From an uncultured Solirubrobacterales bacterium (GTDB lineage: Bacteria > Actinomycetota > Thermoleophilia > Solirubrobacterales > 70-9), in assembly GCA_963699225.1 (NCBI GenBank), contig OY969423.1:2032740-2096739 (forward strand): a DNA stretch of 64,000 bases. Direction: 5' to 3'. The notes beneath the pieces were generated by a model that saw nothing but the letters and a program-made list of their open reading frames with translations, was not told where the DNA came from and ran no database searches. Below are positions 13,473 through 57,701 of the stretch, one piece after another. Position 1 is the first letter of the stretch; each line of letters opens with the position of its first letter. The translations under genes and the position numbers were made by a program.

Positions 13473-13763
13473 ATGAGCGAAACCAAGACGATCGAGGCCG
13501 AGACCACACTGCGCCGCACCGAGCGCGCGGTGCACGGCGACCGGCCCGACGAGACCGTGTTGCTCGACGTCGATGCCGGCACCGCGGTGCGGCTCAACTC
13601 GACCGGCGCCTGGATCTGGGAGCAGCTCGAGCAGCCGCGCCAGGTCAGCGAGCTGGCCAGTGGCCTGGCCCAGCGCTTCGAAATCGACGAGGGGCGGGCG
13701 CTCGGCGACGTCGTTGCCTTCGCCCGCGAGATGGCGCGGCGCGACCTGCTCGCCGCCAGCTAG
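13473..13763 (+). CDS. PqqD-family protein (stand-alone RiPP recognition element-like)
   Basis: MSETKTIEAE...VLLDVDAGTAVRLNSTGAWIWEQLEQPRQVSELASGLAQRFEIDEGRALGDVVAFAREMARRDLL fits the PqqD/RRE pattern (LN..A..IW..L.....V.EL...L...). Confidence 0.75.
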   Translation: MSETKTIEAETTLRRTERAVHGDRPDETVLLDVDAGTAVRLNSTGAWIWEQLEQPRQVSELASGLAQRFEIDEGRALGDVVAFAREMARRDLLAAS

Positions 13764-14752
13764 CCGGCCAGCGCCCGCTCGGGCAGGTTCTGGTCGGCGT
13801 GGTAACTCGAACGCACCAGCGGACCTGAGGCGACCGACTCGAAGCCGAGGTCGTAGGCCGCCTTCTCCAGCGCCGCGAACTCCTCCGGGTGCCAGTAGCG
13901 CACCACCGGCAGGTGGTTTTCGGTCGGGCGCAGGTACTGGCCTACGGTCAGCACCTGGACGCGATGCTCACGCAGCAGGCCGAAGGTCTCGACCATCTCC
14001 TCGAAGCTCTCGCCCAGCCCGACCATCAGCCCCGACTTGGTGACGACATCGGCGCCGCCCATCTCCTTGGCCATCTTCAGCACCCGCGCCGAGCGCAGGA
14101 ATTTGGAGCCGCGCCGCGCCACTGGGTAGAGCCGGGGCACGGTCTCGACGTTGTGGTTGAAGACGTCGGGCTTCTCGTGGATCACCTTGGCCAGCGGCAT
14201 CTCCTGGCCGCGGAAGTCGGGGGTGAGGATCTCGACCTTGCAGCCGGGCGCCTGCATGCGGATCGAGCGGATCACGCCGACGAAGGCGCTCGCACCGTAG
14301 TCGGGCAGGTCGTCGCGGTCGACCGAGGTGACGACGGCGTGGCGCAGTCCCATCTTCTTCACTTGGTTGGCGACCCGCAGCGGCTCCAGCGGGTCGTTCC
14401 AGGTCGGCACGCCCGTCTTCACGTTGCAGAAGCCGCAGCGGCGGGTGCAGACGTCGCCGAGGATCATGAAGGTCGCCGTGCCGCGCTCCCAGCACTCGCC
14501 GACGTTGGGGCAGTTGGCCTCCTCGCAGACCGTGTGCAGGTTGTCGCTGCCGATCATCGCCTTAAGCCGGCGGTAGGTCGGCCCGCCCGGAGCCGGCACC
14601 TTCAGCCAGGGCGGCTTGCGGGCGCGGCGGAAGGGAACGGTGCCGTCGCTCTCGGCCGCGATCCCGCCCGGCTTGGCACGGGAGCGCGTTACGTGGACTC
14701 GCTCCTCCGTGGGAGCGTTGCGCTCCGCGGGCTCTGTCGTCGACTCGCTCAT
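13760..14752 (-). CDS. lipA: lipoyl synthase
   Basis: CEEANCPNVGECW and CTRRCGFCNV (radical SAM CxxxCxxC plus the auxiliary cluster motif). 330 aa. Overlaps lipB by 4 nt. Confidence 0.95.
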   Translation of the reverse strand: MSESTTEPAERNAPTEERVHVTRSRAKPGGIAAESDGTVPFRRARKPPWLKVPAPGGPTYRRLKAMIGSDNLHTVCEEANCPNVGECWERGTATFMILGDVCTRRCGFCNVKTGVPTWNDPLEPLRVANQVKKMGLRHAVVTSVDRDDLPDYGASAFVGVIRSIRMQAPGCKVEILTPDFRGQEMPLAKVIHEKPDVFNHNVETVPRLYPVARRGSKFLRSARVLKMAKEMGGADVVTKSGLMVGLGESFEEMVETFGLLREHRVQVLTVGQYLRPTENHLPVVRYWHPEEFAALEKAAYDLGFESVASGPLVRSSYHADQNLPERALAG

Positions 14753-23899: not shown

Positions 23900-24673
23900 T
23901 CAGGCACCGGGCGCCTCCTCGCCGAGGGGGGCGAAGGCGGCGCGCAGCGCTTCGGCGGCAGCCGCGGGATCGGTGGCGTCGCGGACCGCGCGCACGACAC
24001 AGAGCCGCCGCGCCCCGGCCTCGACCACCTGGGAGACGTTCGAGGCGTCGATGCCGCCGATCGCGAAGAACGGGTGGGGAGCGTTGGCGGCGGCGTGGGA
24101 GATCAGCTCCAGCCCCACCGCGGGTCGGCCCTGCTTCGTCGGCGTCTCCCAGATCGGCCCCACGCTGATGTAGTCCGGTGACGCGCCTGACCGGCGCATA
24201 TCTGCGTCCTCGGTCGCTTGCGTGCGGAGCACGCCGCGCTCCCTGTGTCCTTGATCTGCTTGGTCAGGCGCGTCACCGGAAGCCGCAATTTGCTCTTTTG
24301 AATGCGTGGATAGACCGACTATGGCGTCGGGGCCAAGGAGCGCTCGTGCTTCAGCGACGGTCGTGTCGTCCTGTCCCAAATGGACCCCGTCGGCGTCGCA
24401 GGCGCGCGCCAGGTCGGGGTCGTCGTTGACGATGAAGAGGGCGCTGTTGTTGTCGCAGAGGCGGCGGAAGGTCTGCGCGGCGAGCTCGATCTCGCGCCGT
24501 GGCAAAGACTTCTCGCGCAGCTGCACGATGTCGACACCGCCGCGCAAAGCCGCCGCCAGTAGCGGCTCGGGATCCTCGCCGCGGGGGCGCGCCTCGCAAC
24601 AGAGATAGAGCCGCGCCGTGCGCAGCCGCTCGCGTCGCAGCGGTCCCTCGGCCTCGGGTGGTGCCAGGCTCAT
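23900..24673 (-). CDS. thiE: thiamine-phosphate synthase carrying an in-frame ~29-aa repeat-derived insert
   Basis: ATG 24673. LYLCCEARP...GGVDIVQLREK...GVHLGQDD...IVGLSTHS...PDYISVGPIWETPTKQ...FFAIGGI are ThiE motifs. The insert is encoded by 24174-24280. Confidence 0.85.
   Translation of the reverse strand: MSLAPPEAEGPLRRERLRTARLYLCCEARPRGEDPEPLLAAALRGGVDIVQLREKSLPRREIELAAQTFRRLCDNNSALFIVNDDPDLARACDADGVHLGQDDTTVAEARALLGPDAIVGLSTHSKEQIAASGDAPDQADQGHRERGVLRTQATEDADMRRSGASPDYISVGPIWETPTKQGRPAVGLELISHAAANAPHPFFAIGGIDASNVSQVVEAGARRLCVVRAVRDATDPAAAAEALRAAFAPLGEEAPGA
24174..24280 (-). repeat. family-1 element: 69-nt conserved core (SD+ATG) closed by a perfect 19-bp inverted repeat, inside thiE
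   Basis: Arms at 24174-24192 and 24262-24280 are perfectly complementary. The core 24194-24262 is 62/69 identical to 30942-31010 (hand count). Confidence 0.85.
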
Positions 24674-24704: not shown

Positions 24705-24806
24705 CGGGTAGCATCGGAAGGGTACGGGAGCCGAAGAGGCTGAGAGGGTGGCAACGAGGCCACCGACCGTCTGAACCTGATCCGGGTAATGCCGGCGGAG
24801 GCAATG
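24705..24806 (+). promoter_or_regulatory. TPP (THI-box) riboswitch upstream of thiO
   Basis: ACGGGAGCC...GGCUGAGAGGGUGGC...ACCGUCUGAACCUGAUCCGGGUAAUGCCGGCGGAGG matches the conserved THI-element core (CUGAGA, ACCUGAUC.GG.UAAU.CC.GCG.AGG). The GGAGG at its 3' end is the thiO SD. The boundaries are approximate. Confidence 0.85.
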
Positions 24807-24807
24807 C

Positions 24808-26924
<2,117 letters not shown>

Positions 26925-26969: not shown

Positions 26970-27043
26970 GCCCCCGTAGCTCAGTTGGTTAGAGCGGCGG
27001 CCTTTTAAGCCGCGCGGCGCGGGTTCGAATCCCGCCGGGGGCA
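26970..27043 (+). tRNA. tRNA-Lys (anticodon TTT)
   Basis: GCCCCCGTAGCTCAGTTGGTTAGAGCGGCGGCCTTTTAAGCCGCGCGGCGCGGGTTCGAATCCCGCCGGGGGCA. Cloverleaf fold with anticodon loop CUUUUAA. Confidence 0.92.
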
Positions 27044-28458: not shown

Positions 28459-28461
28459 AAC

Positions 28462-28491
28462 GCAAATGACCCGCCGAGGCGGGTCATTTGC
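28462..28491 (-). terminator. intrinsic terminator hairpin, functional orientation minus (purF-purN-purH transcript or a 3' RNA)
   Basis: GCAAATGACCCGCC-GA-GGCGGGTCATTTGC forms a perfect 14-bp arm pair. On the minus strand it is followed by GUUUU. On the plus strand no U-tract follows. Confidence 0.6.
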
Positions 28492-28714
28492 GAAACGGGG
28501 GCTGCCGTCGAAATAACGAACGACCCCACCCTCACGTATTCAGATCTTAGCGCCCCGAGCGGGAGTCGAACCCGCCAGCCCCCGTTTCGTGAGGACGAGG
28601 CCCGCATCCGGCGGCCGGGGCGTCGCCGCTCTCGCGGCGGACCCGACGCTATGCAGGCTCATCGCACGTATTGCGCGCTAAATCGAAGGAATAGCGCGCG
28701 AGCTGAGCTGAGAG

Positions 28715-30331: not shown

Positions 30332-30947
30332 CGACTACGACCCGGCGCGGGTCGTCAGCGTCGATCCTAACCTTGCCCGCCGCGATCATGCGGATCGCCT
30401 CCGAGTAGAGCTGGTGCTCGACGGTGTGGATCGCCAGCTCGAGCGCCTCGCGGTCGCGATCGGGCGGCACGTCGACCTCGCGCTGCAGGATCGTCGGCCC
30501 GGTGTCGACGCCCTCGTCGACGAAGTGGACGGTGACGCCGGTGACGTTGGCGCCCGCCGCCAGCGCCTGTCCGATCGCGTCGAGGCCGGGGAAGGCGGGC
30601 AGCAGGGCGGGGTGGACGTTGACGACACGGTTGCGGAAGCGCCCGACGAAGGCCGGGCTGAGCAGCTGCATGTAACCGGCGAGGACGATCAGATCGGCGC
30701 CCCGCTCCTCGACCCAGTCGGCCATTGCGGCGTCGCGCTCGGCCCGATCGGCGAAGTCCTCGCGGGGGAAGAGCCCGACCGCGATCCGCGCCGCCCGGGC
30801 CCGTTCGATCGCCGGCGCCCCGGGCTTGTCGGAGCCGACCCCGACCACCTCGATCCCCTCGCGCATGTGCAGTCGGTCGAGGATCGCCTGCAGATTCGAT
30901 CCGGTCCCGCTGGCCAGGACCACCAGGCGGAATGTGGCGCTACGCAT
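30324..30947 (-). CDS. purN: phosphoribosylglycinamide formyltransferase
   Basis: ATG 30947 gives MRSATFRLVVLASGTGSNLQAILD...NVHPALLPAFPG...VHFVDEGVDTGP. The SD and ATG lie inside the family-1 repeat core. Confidence 0.9.
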   Translation of the reverse strand: MRSATFRLVVLASGTGSNLQAILDRLHMREGIEVVGVGSDKPGAPAIERARAARIAVGLFPREDFADRAERDAAMADWVEERGADLIVLAGYMQLLSPAFVGRFRNRVVNVHPALLPAFPGLDAIGQALAAGANVTGVTVHFVDEGVDTGPTILQREVDVPPDRDREALELAIHTVEHQLYSEAIRMIAAGKVRIDADDPRRVVVDD

Positions 30948-31026
30948 CTCGGCGTCCTCGGTCGCTCGCGTGCAGAGCACGCCACGCTCCCTGCGTCCTT
31001 GATCTGCTTGACCACATTCCGCCTGG
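30923..31026 (-). repeat. family-1 element copy filling the purF-purN spacer (core 30942-31010, arms 30923-30937 / 31012-31026)
   Basis: The perfect 15-bp arms, CCAGGCGGAATGTGG / CCACATTCCGCCTGG, differ in sequence from the thiE copy. The core is 62/69 identical to the thiE copy. Confidence 0.85.
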
Positions 31027-31034
31027 GAGTGAGG

Positions 31035-37833: not shown

Positions 37834-38507
37834 GCCGCCGCTCCCGCCGCGGCGACGGCCTCGAAGACCCGCAGCCCGTCCGTCGATCCCGTCAACGGAT
37901 CGACCGCGTGCTCGGGGTGCGGCATAAGGCCGACCACGTTGCCGGCCTCGTTGCGCACGCCGGCGATGTCCCGCGCCGACCCGTTCGGGTTCTGCCCCGG
38001 CGCGTAGCGGTATGCGACCTGCCCGTTCGCCTCGAGCGCATCGAGCACCTCATCCGGCGCGAAGTAGCGGCCTTCGCCGTGCTTGGCCGGAATCGATAGC
38101 TGCCGAGTGGTCGGTTGACCCACCTCGGTGGTGGTCAATCGACCACTCGGCTCCTCGATCAGGTCGAGCTGGCGGCAGGTGAAGCGCATGCTCTCGTTGA
38201 GCAGCAGCGCGCCGGGCAGCAGGCCTGCCTCGCAGAGGACCTGGAAGCCGTTGCAGATGCCGAGCACCGGGCCGCCGCTCGCGGCGAACTCGGCCACTGC
38301 CTCCATCGCCGGCGAGAAGCGGGCGATCGCGCCGGCCCGCAGGTAGTCGCCGTAGGAGAAGCCGCCCGGGACGACGACGGCGTCGATCCCATCGAGGTAA
38401 CGCTCTTCGTGCCAGACCAGTCGCGCCTTGGCGCCGGTTCGCTCACAGGCATTGAGGGCGTCGCGCTCGTCGCAGGAGCCGGGGAACTGGAGCACTCCCC
38501 AGCGCAT
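37830..38507 (-). CDS. purQ: phosphoribosylformylglycinamidine synthase glutaminase subunit PurQ
   Basis: VVVPGGFSYGDYLR...GICNGFQVL (nucleophile Cys)...MPHPE. 225 aa. Confidence 0.95.
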   Translation of the reverse strand: MRWGVLQFPGSCDERDALNACERTGAKARLVWHEERYLDGIDAVVVPGGFSYGDYLRAGAIARFSPAMEAVAEFAASGGPVLGICNGFQVLCEAGLLPGALLLNESMRFTCRQLDLIEEPSGRLTTTEVGQPTTRQLSIPAKHGEGRYFAPDEVLDALEANGQVAYRYAPGQNPNGSARDIAGVRNEAGNVVGLMPHPEHAVDPLTGSTDGLRVFEAVAAAGAAA

Positions 38508-46926: not shown

Positions 46927-46992
46927 GGAGCGTCGGGGGTCCCTCCCCAGGAACTCCCGCGAAGCGGCCTGGGGAGGGACCCCCGACGCTCC
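46927..46992. repeat. perfect 23-bp inverted repeat with a 20-nt loop
   Basis: GGAGCGTCGGGGGTCCCTCCCCA (46927-46949) and TGGGGAGGGACCCCCGACGCTCC (46970-46992), between the hydrolase stop and the GYD start. Confidence 0.7.
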
Positions 46993-57574: not shown

Positions 57575-57586
57575 GAGCTGACCAGA

Positions 57587-57696
57587 GCCAATCCCGGAAG
57601 GGGTGGAGCGTCTTGCACTTTTTCGGCGCGAGCTAGCGGCGCCAGCCCAACCACGCCTCACCGAAAAAGTTAAGCGAAACCCCTTCCGGGATTGGC
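57587..57696. repeat. 110-nt nested palindrome between convergent genes (likely bidirectional terminator)
   Basis: Outer perfect 18-bp arms GCCAATCCCGGAAGGGGT / ACCCCTTCCGGGATTGGC. Inner 10-bp arms ACTTTTTCGG (57617-57626) / CCGAAAAAGT (57661-57670). Confidence 0.65.
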
Positions 57697-57701
57697 CCGG
57701 C

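Follow-up and report, generated by a model that had tools for sequence, protein, structure and literature searches.

Few components of bacterial genomes are as poorly understood as small palindromic repeats, and in the soil order Solirubrobacterales, which is abundant and largely uncultured, none appears to have been described. Among the described systems, Rickettsia palindromic elements (RPEs), reportedly described by Ogata and colleagues in 2000, are said to be short dispersed palindromes, some of which lie in frame in intact genes inherited across species and add a surface peptide. Here, we analyzed a 64,000-nucleotide stretch of the genome of an uncultured Solirubrobacterales bacterium (contig OY969423.1, positions 2,032,740 to 2,096,739; hereafter the window), in which thiE, encoding thiamine-phosphate synthase, is extended by an in-frame hairpin. 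We conclude with high confidence that the insert in thiE belongs to a family of dispersed, non-coding hairpin repeats, which in these searches was found only in Solirubrobacterales/Thermoleophilia (Actinomycetota), and we are equally confident that the arms of its members are derived from their targets. The family reverses the usual logic of such repeats, since its middle is conserved and its ends are made locally. We could not find in the literature a description of a conserved centre combined with a target-derived stem.

The element resembles RPEs in being a palindromic repeat that lies in frame in intact open reading frames (ORFs), as read from the sequences of thiE and hisF. The hosts differ (Alphaproteobacteria versus Actinomycetota), and the sequences are regarded as unrelated, the core not having been compared directly with RPE sequences. 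In addition, the arms of RPEs belong to the repeated sequence, whereas the family here has a conserved centre and an outer stem copied from each target, and most of its copies lie at gene ends, with in-frame copies found only in thiE and hisF. In mycobacterial interspersed repetitive units (MIRUs), direct repeats are arranged in tandem and contain small ORFs that are coupled to the genes on either side; MIRUs are neither hairpins nor intragenic. A second copy in the window, next to purN, is like them in being intercistronic and in carrying the translation-start signals of the downstream gene, but the family consists of hairpins that sometimes lie inside genes. A first-pass annotation of the window had drawn the analogy with RPEs and MIRUs, which proved apt, and no described family to which the element belongs was found in Rfam or the literature.

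Repetitive extragenic palindromic (REP) and REPIN sequences, or CGTC- and GTAG-tagged palindromes, are imperfect palindromes of 20 to 40 nt whose stems are conserved, whose head is GTAG or CGTC, and whose loops vary, and the GTAG REPs occur with RAYT transposases (PMC3733652, in which RPEs are also mentioned). Like the family here, REPs are GC-rich hairpins at gene ends that sometimes give stop codons, are intragenic, or lie inside small target palindromes (PMC3733652). In contrast, the stem here is copy-specific, no GTAG/CGTC head is conserved, and the structured 50-nt "loop" is the conserved part. MITEs (miniature inverted-repeat transposable elements) such as Correia/NEMIS, Nezha, and ERIC share with the family their size, copy number, hairpin potential, and presence/absence polymorphism, as well as the donation of signals; here, purN apparently receives a ribosome-binding site (RBS) and ATG, and flanking genes receive TGA stops. 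However, MITEs have conserved terminal inverted repeats that match a parent insertion sequence (IS), together with direct duplications, and neither was seen in the family. Because the defining tests of both MITEs and REPs fail, we counted the family among small palindromic repeat elements rather than in either class.

Two further systems bear on the arms. Quasipalindrome template-switch mutation has been described in E. coli (PMC7202029), and template switching creates and maintains perfect hairpins, with multi-base, apparently compensatory changes made in one step (PMC8794818). As in those cases, a reverse-complement copy of a neighbouring sequence replaces or extends one arm here (PMC8794818, PMC7202029); the known cases are sporadic and occur at arbitrary inverted repeats, whereas here the process is seemingly coupled to a conserved core dispersed in tens of copies per genome. 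In mitochondrial genes of Nematomorpha, perfect inverted repeats also lie in functional protein genes with both arms translated (PMC6649704). Those arms code for conserved regions and share no mobile core, whereas the arms described here flank a dispersed element and code for a dispensable loop.

A hairpin repeat within thiE and a second copy next to purN

The whole element in thiE (arms and core) occupies 107 nt at positions 24174 to 24280 on the minus strand, which is the sense strand of the family, and encodes SGDAPDQADQGHRERGVLRTQATEDADMRRSGASP(D). On the plus strand, its arms TCCGGTGACGCGCCTGACC (24174-24192) and GGTCAGGCGCGTCACCGGA (24262-24280) are 100% complementary over 19 nt and are separated by a 69-nt spacer. 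Read on the sense strand, the 5' arm TCCGGTGACGCGCCTGACC (24262-24280) codes for SGDAPD and ends in the CTGACC motif of the family, and the 3' arm GGTCAGGCGCGTCACCGGA (24174-24192) codes for (R)SGASP(D). The 5' arm is largely native thiE, its SGDAP being the SAEAP of uninterrupted orthologues, and the 3' arm is the inverted copy created with the insertion. The insert is thus, as the first-pass annotation had proposed, a core plus an inverted copy of the thiE sequence beside it. The lengths and the perfect complementarity given there were also confirmed, but the coordinates of the core (24194-24262) were off by one: the 69-nt core, in which an inner stem (AAGCAGAT / ATATGCGCC) surrounds the conserved centre, lies at 24193-24261 on the minus strand. 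The centre of about 50 nt (CAAGGAC...GAGGACGC, 24204-24253, minus strand) consists of G-C pairs with GA/GA internal loops, and the apical hairpin of the thiE copy, GCGTGC-TCC-GCACGC, lies at about 24220-24234 on the same strand. Matches to the 19-mer arm were found in these two places only within the window, with up to 3 mismatches allowed, against a chance expectation of 0.05. The sense-strand fold of the thiE segment had a predicted energy of -68.2 kcal/mol (z = -6.5), and 0 of 200 shuffled sequences were as stable.

The absence of other copies would have spoken against a repeat element, but a second copy was present in the same window. With the covariance model of the family (R1, described below), exactly two copies were detected in the 64 kb, that in thiE (123 bits over 24171-24283) and one at 30918-31031 on the minus strand between the purF stop (31035) and purN (113 bits); the next hits, of about 22 bits, were unrelated hairpins. 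In a BLAST comparison against the window, the second copy (about 30941-31010) was 91% identical to the thiE element and had the same orientation, the two copies differing at 6 positions. Its arms form a different perfect inverted repeat of 15 bp, CCAGGCGGAATGTGG / CCACATTCCGCCTGG (30923-30937 / 31012-31026). Both the purN ATG (30947-30945) and a GAGGA eight nucleotides upstream are element sequence, and the 3' arm consists of the N-terminal codons that belong to purN itself. The native start of purN reads GTG AGC GAC TTT CGC in loci L001 and L003 and ATG CGT AGC GCC ACA TTC CGC in the window. The purN copy apparently supplies the RBS and start codon of this gene.

A dispersed family with a conserved centre and copy-specific arms

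Scanning of a genome collection with a 26-nt pattern of the centre yielded at least 120 loci, which, among the matches listed, belonged to Solirubrobacterales, Solirubrobacteraceae, Conexibacteraceae, Thermoleophilia, or unclassified actinobacterial metagenome-assembled genomes (MAGs). From these loci and the thiE loci fetched by protein (1.0 Mb of loci), 131 copies were extracted, and R1 was built from 73 of them in an alignment of 113 ungapped columns. The shared unit is about 60 to 81 nt and the whole element about 81 to 110 nt, small, non-coding, and multi-copy. Its layout is outer arm (10-14 nt, copy-specific) - CTGRCC - AAGCAGAT - CAAGGACGCAGGGAGCG - TG - GCGTGC - TCT - GCACGC - GAGCGACCGAGGACGCC - GATATGCGCC - GGYCAG - outer arm'. 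The near-invariant, purine/GA-rich centre of about 50 nt contained 32 invariant columns in the 73-copy alignment. It folds into G-C pairs that alternate with GA/GA internal loops, topped by an apical hairpin of 6 bp, and its helices were 98.6 to 99.7% paired over the 73 copies. The inner stem (AAGCAGAT/ATATGC), which co-varies between subfamilies, was swapped in about one-third of the copies for other, quite dissimilar complementary sequences (e.g., TCGCCAGG/TCTGGCGA and GTGCCTGA/TCAGGCAC). The semi-conserved 6-nt ends, CTGRCC/GGYCAG, carry one TGA per strand.

Beyond these ends, each copy has its own 10 to 20 bp of nearly perfect stem, giving a median total stem of 22 bp. Most of the outer 14 arm columns had no majority base. 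Nevertheless, 20 of 20 arm pairs varied on both sides, and 82% of cells in the 73 copies were paired, compared with 26 to 46% when partners were slid. Isolated arm mismatches were G.T in 24 cases and A.C in 6, and this excess points to the sense-strand hairpin (RNA or single-stranded DNA) as the relevant one.

Some copies depart from this layout. In rare variants, the apical hairpin is exchanged for another, such as CCGAATAG-CAGGT-CTATTCGG (L003:13425-13493 and L022:7825); among these two and L062:6924, there were two such exchanges and one additional hairpin, of about 35 nt, inserted into the core's 3' half. In one subfamily (L053, L102, L084, L077, L090, and L097), the arm GAAAACC ... GGTTTGCAG was common to unrelated loci.

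Outside these genomes, no match to the element was found among PLSDB plasmids, INPHARED phages, or IMG/VR. A permissive Rfam search of both strands gave no family or intron hit and yielded only miRNA-precursor hairpins below threshold, the best score being a generic hairpin (mir-4529, 24.5 bits against a gathering threshold of 88). The core sequence appeared in no searchable paper, and the literature held nothing relevant on repeats of Solirubrobacterales/Thermoleophilia.

Comparison of filled and empty sites

Filled and empty sites were compared by anchored local alignments, and the net insertion at orthologous sites was 68 to 93 nt. No direct target duplication was seen by eye at the inspected well-preserved copies (e.g., L088, L057, and L114), no formal direct-repeat scan having been run. 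In the window, an empty family site lies at 13730-13812 (no strand assigned), where lipA and a pqqD-like gene converge and their stop codons overlap (CTAG). This site is likewise empty in L002, the lipA end reading ...P(E/Q)RA(L/A)AG*, and is filled in L001 (19607) and L036 (4929). In both filled loci, the native pqqD-like end (LAAS*) forms the 3' arm, and an inverted copy of it forms the 5' arm and has overwritten the last six lipA codons (ERALAG* -> GGS*). A one-base bulge at this site places TGA in frame for both genes. The same pattern of a native arm and an inverted copy was found for L088 compared with L052 and for L005 compared with L082. For L064 compared with L100, the native arm was on the opposite side, and the convergent gene B was shortened by 8 codons.

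At the lipA/pqqD-like, L088/L052, L005/L082, and L064/L100 sites, as well as in thiE and at purN, one arm was the reverse complement of a pre-existing neighbour, which is the pattern expected of template switching. Judged from these alignments, copies do not take their outer stem with them to new sites; one arm is local DNA and the other its reverse complement, either inserted (thiE) or replacing the flank on the other side (lipA and gene B of L064). A rule that the right arm is always native fits four sites and fails at L064/L100 and thiE, so that either side can serve as the native template. We also considered entry of the core into the loops of pre-existing terminator hairpins. This fits L082 and L109 and fails at thiE, lipA/pqqD-like, L052, and L100, where the empty sites have no palindrome.

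The insert as a loop of the ThiE protein

The host gene thiE (23900-24673, minus strand) encodes a protein of 257 aa with a TMP-TENI domain (PF02581, E=1e-56). The reading frame is open through the whole insert region, with 0 stop codons, and the uninterrupted frame with about 29 extra codons that had been read from the sequence was borne out by comparison with known proteins. In the alignment with 3O63, the ThiE of M. tuberculosis, residues 9-134 and 165-248 of the window protein were aligned; chain residue 155 stands on either side of the gap, so that the window ThiE has about 30 extra residues. It is 29 to 30 residues longer than 228-aa orthologues and M. tuberculosis ThiE. Among the best 120 homologues, the loop from STH to GPIW was short (25 residues) in 50 and long (54 or 56 residues) in 65, and variants of 21 to 27 residues also occurred. 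thiE was intact in the 65 of 120 that carry the insert. Because the insert was a multiple of 3 in length and stop-free in 65 of 65 long-loop homologues, an intein, an intron, or programmed translational bypass (considered for the matching GAC codons at both arm ends) is unnecessary. The insert is only 87 nt or 29 aa, compared with at least about 130 aa for an intein or about 200 nt for a self-splicing intron, and the searches gave only TMP-TENI in Pfam and no intron in Rfam.

GC content at third codon positions (GC3) was 0.66 in the insert and 0.83 across the remaining thiE, and the insert uses codons rare for the source genome. In an AlphaFold2 model of the window ThiE, the barrel was confident, and residues 135-163 had a predicted local distance difference test score (pLDDT) of <50 and no secondary structure, with the loop placed between helix 126-131 and strand 168-171. 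The element is thus predicted by this model to be translated in thiE as a disordered loop of 29 to 31 residues. From general TIM-barrel geometry, an insert in a helix-to-strand loop should presumably face away from the catalytic side of ThiE. Added residues are likely tolerated at such a position.

Inheritance of the thiE insert and constraint on its core

The short loop STHSEEQIAASAExPVDYISVGPIW was widespread across the wider group and is the naive state. Insert-bearing alleles read ...A(S/T)G(G/D)xP(D/G)Q-core-RR(S/P)GxxxxVDY, in which the 5' arm corresponds to native SAExP. The insertion added 93 nt (31 codons), and the window lineage later lost 6 nt, leaving 87. It had been suggested that an alignment of ThiE orthologues might reveal a lineage-specific segment; the segment was indeed absent from naive short-loop alleles but was also present in other lineages.

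Twelve thiE copies were compared, of which 9 of the 11 outside the window were retrieved by protein, independently of the core, and L038 and L105 came from the pattern scan. The insertion point was common to all 12 orthologous copies, and an imperfection or bulge in the 3' arm, CATCC, was common to six lineages. The apical loop had C in 12 of 12 thiE copies and T in most family copies, including the purN copy. The thiE copies appear to share one origin, the element having landed once. Independent re-insertion in each lineage was rejected given the same 3'-arm imperfection in six lineages and the same insertion point.

In the ThiE tree, insert-bearing and naive alleles were interleaved. The window thiE was 0.94 to 0.95 identical to L125-type naive alleles over nt 1-240, 0.72 to 0.76 over nt 271-393, and 0.87 to 0.91 over nt 501-771. 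The middle tract (CAT TCA AAA GAG CAA ATT ..., 24281-24403, minus strand) adjoins the insert directly upstream; it is a low-GC haplotype common to insert-bearing alleles and foreign to the gene background. Because identity drops in nt 271-393 and the tract matches the insert-bearing haplotype, the insert probably entered the window lineage on a recombined tract. In L004/P0037 (L004:10001-10693), exactly 81 nt were lost and an 11-bp palindrome with a 4-nt loop, TCCGGTGACGC-AGGC-GCGTCACCGGA, was left in the coding sequence. Further deletion derivatives of insert-bearing thiE were found in L126/P0040 (L126:878-1555), L147, and P0089. These comparisons suggest that the insert has been passed on by descent, has moved from one lineage to another on a recombined tract, and has several times been lost by deletion.

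Among the 12 thiE copies, the 69-nt core was 0.94 identical, including at third codon positions (0.94), whereas the flanks were 0.78 to 0.80 identical, with third positions at 0.62. The arms were the fastest-evolving part (0.63 to 0.74), yet they stayed paired through matched changes among lineages (GCGCC/GGCGC, GTGCC/GGCAC, GTCCC/GGGAC, ACGCC/GGCGT, and GCTCC/GGAGC). The stem is therefore conserved in relatives through compensated changes, but it is perfect only in the window lineage, and bulges or mismatches occur in other thiE orthologues. Since selection on the protein does not account for conservation at synonymous positions, a nucleotide-level constraint acts on the core inside the gene. 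Gene conversion from other copies is an unlikely cause of this conservation, as the thiE-specific loop C is absent from the purN copy of the same genome, which shows 6 differences. In orthologous intergenic pairs, a set biased by how it was found, the centre was 95% and the flanks 85% identical. A core this constant would imply that the sense-strand hairpin, as RNA or single-stranded DNA, has a sequence-specific role, and our leading guess for its function is a sense-strand hairpin that binds a factor. Conservation of the core within coding sequence points to a function at the nucleic-acid level that can now be tested.

Position of the copies relative to genes

Among 117 copies with usable flanks, 35 lay between convergent genes, 28 and 18 between tandem genes (two orientations), and 12 between divergent genes, and at least one gene ended at the element in 98 of the 117. 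The flanking stop codons peaked inside CTGACC/GGTCAG (-5/+5) and ten nucleotides farther out (+15, 16 copies). Orientation with respect to the gene ending at the element was unbiased (63 versus 70), and 28 copies were antisense to both neighbours. No T-run after the arms was seen in the aligned copies; actinobacterial terminators often have no U-tract.

After a noisy GC3-based screen for more, in-frame copies were confirmed in thiE and hisF only. The hisF gene in L099 (L099:1968-2080; PF00977, E=6e-80) carries an in-frame antisense copy, which gives 26 extra residues between DAKR and WEV compared with solved HisF structures. ThiE and HisF are both TIM-barrel enzymes. At the level of genes, the effects of the family thus include a hairpin translated as a loop in thiE over long evolutionary time, an antisense copy in hisF, overwritten lipA ends, and a purN start. 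For annotation, the element explains ThiE length polymorphism and odd gene ends in Solirubrobacterales MAGs.

Proposed origin and alternative explanations

We consider it probable that the elements form a dispersed non-coding hairpin family whose arms are target-derived through fold-back template switching, that one element landed once in thiE, and that the core is held by a sequence-specific role. The fold-back origin itself is proposed with moderate confidence. Because one arm is local DNA and the other its reverse complement, we infer intra-strand template switching. A nascent strand would acquire the core during DNA synthesis, and the acquired core would snap into a hairpin. The 3' end would then copy the just-made flank of its own strand for one to two helical turns before rejoining the template. 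The same switching could later re-perfect the stem, which would explain the co-varying arms. The family offers a natural system for studying how template switching during replication creates and maintains long perfect hairpins.

Several points weigh against this proposal. The mechanism is read from its end products, and only about six filled/empty pairs were cleanly polarised. The core may reach new sites by means of a dedicated enzyme (a transposase or HUH nuclease). The arms are also non-random, with a weak consensus of CTGRCC plus TGA(G/C)G at 23-24 nt, and in a few subfamilies 7 to 9 nt of arm (GAAAACC/GGTTTGCAG) are shared, so that part of the arm travels with the element. Two "empty" sites hold short palindromes (CCTGACC-CGCC-GGTCAGG in L082 and GCCTGAG-GCGGG-CTCAGGC in L109), which could be pre-existing hairpin targets rather than deletion footprints; insertion of REPs within small palindromes is known (PMC3733652). 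Moreover, family-wide conservation is inflated because the genome-scan copies were chosen by exact centre match, and the ThiE tree is a rough neighbour-joining tree of about 200 columns.

The element could instead be a host-selected cis element, i.e., a functional RNA or DNA signal (factor-binding site, terminator, or 3'-end stabiliser) recruited at gene ends and kept in thiE for regulating its mRNA, for example through RNase III cleavage or ribosome slowing. We regard this as possible, if on balance doubtful, and it is compatible with the proposed template-switch origin. It would account for a core that, between orthologous thiE copies, is much more conserved than the synonymous rate predicts (0.94 versus 0.62), for the co-variation of arms and inner stem between orthologues with G.T over A.C mismatches (24 versus 6) on one strand, and for the spread of the insert-bearing tract into another thiE background. 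The ending of a gene at 98 of 117 copies, with stops at fixed stem positions, also agrees with it. However, the unbiased orientation (63 versus 70) and the 28 copies antisense to both neighbours are awkward for an mRNA signal, no U-tract follows the stem, and no Rfam family or known motif matched. In addition, the insert was lost at least 4 times without loss of thiE, half of the close relatives have no insert, and covariation can arise through template switching without selection (PMC8794818).

A classical MITE, a non-autonomous transposon moved by a transposase encoded elsewhere and with its terminal inverted repeats as arms, is unlikely. The family shares with MITEs its small size, non-coding and multi-copy nature, inverted ends, semi-conserved CTGRCC/GGYCAG termini, and some subfamily-specific arm sequence. 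It is also polymorphic for presence and absence, and the loss of exactly 81 nt in L004 equals the unit size. Nevertheless, the outer 10 to 20 bp differ in each copy while the centre is conserved, which is the reverse of MITEs, and a copy of one flank replaces the other. No direct target-site duplication was seen by eye at the inspected filled sites, and the length of the net insertion was variable (68 to 93 nt). A search through 1.2 Mb of loci (8-kb loci) showed no partner IS, and there was no plasmid, phage, or viral match.

The GAGGA and ATG within the thiE copy had been read as a potential internal start that would yield a second product from distal thiE, which we judge to be very improbable. 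The motif and its spacing are present, with GAGGA 7 nt 5' of an in-frame ATG, and for purN the same motif offers the sole plausible RBS and start. The conserved internal loops contain several purine-rich blocks, of which GAGGA is one, and the ATG forms the inner stem's 3' half, where it pairs with GCA (GCA/UGC pairs 25-88, 26-87, and 27-86) and is buried in the -68 kcal/mol hairpin. It is also not universal, reading AGG in the thiE orthologue L129 and being absent in subfamilies with different inner stems. The product would be a fragment of about 95 residues, the C-terminal third with about three of the eight beta-alpha units and without known function. For these reasons, internal initiation was rejected for thiE. 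An ordinary lineage-specific expansion of a ThiE loop that tolerates length change (variants of 21 to 27 residues exist), with DNA palindromic by chance, is refuted by the same 69 nt near purN, in hisF (L099), and at at least 120 unrelated loci, and by the chance stem expectation of 0.05.

A bolder extension of the template-switch proposal is that the core spreads without a transposase by template switching, builds its stem from the DNA where it lands, and is kept by purifying selection at the nucleotide level through a conserved host factor that binds the sense-strand hairpin. We put this forward tentatively, as rather unlikely in its entirety. If it were true, a core would be rewriting the stop codons, C termini, and start codons of its neighbours and occasionally entering TIM-barrel enzymes in frame.

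Other hairpins and genes of the window

Hairpins that have no core were also observed in the window, at 46927-46992, 38099-38154, 28461-28492, and 57583-57700. Among them are a perfect stem of 25 bp that closes a 16-nt loop, another hairpin of about 24 bp, and an inverted repeat of 17 nt with arms about 75 nt apart. One has a 14-bp stem containing TGA, CGCAAATGACCCGC-CGAG-GCGGGTCATTTGCG. These hairpins may be terminators, footprints of lost elements, or members of other hairpin families.

A thiamine pyrophosphate (TPP) riboswitch (59.5 bits) lies at 24714-24820 on the plus strand, upstream of thiO (24808-25956) and thiS-thiG. A relation of this riboswitch to the element was rejected, because it is part of the divergent thiO operon; thiE accordingly lacks a riboswitch here on the strand that encodes it. 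Just downstream of thiS-thiG is a tRNA gene (74.9 bits; 26970-27043, plus strand). In two relatives, an integrated mobile element adjoins thiS-thiG (L125:4229-7517 and L004:1881-7053), with genes for a relaxase and a serine recombinase and for DUF3987 primase-like and helix-turn-helix (HTH) proteins; the window has other genes at this place. The neighbourhood of the thi locus thus appears to be a variable region.

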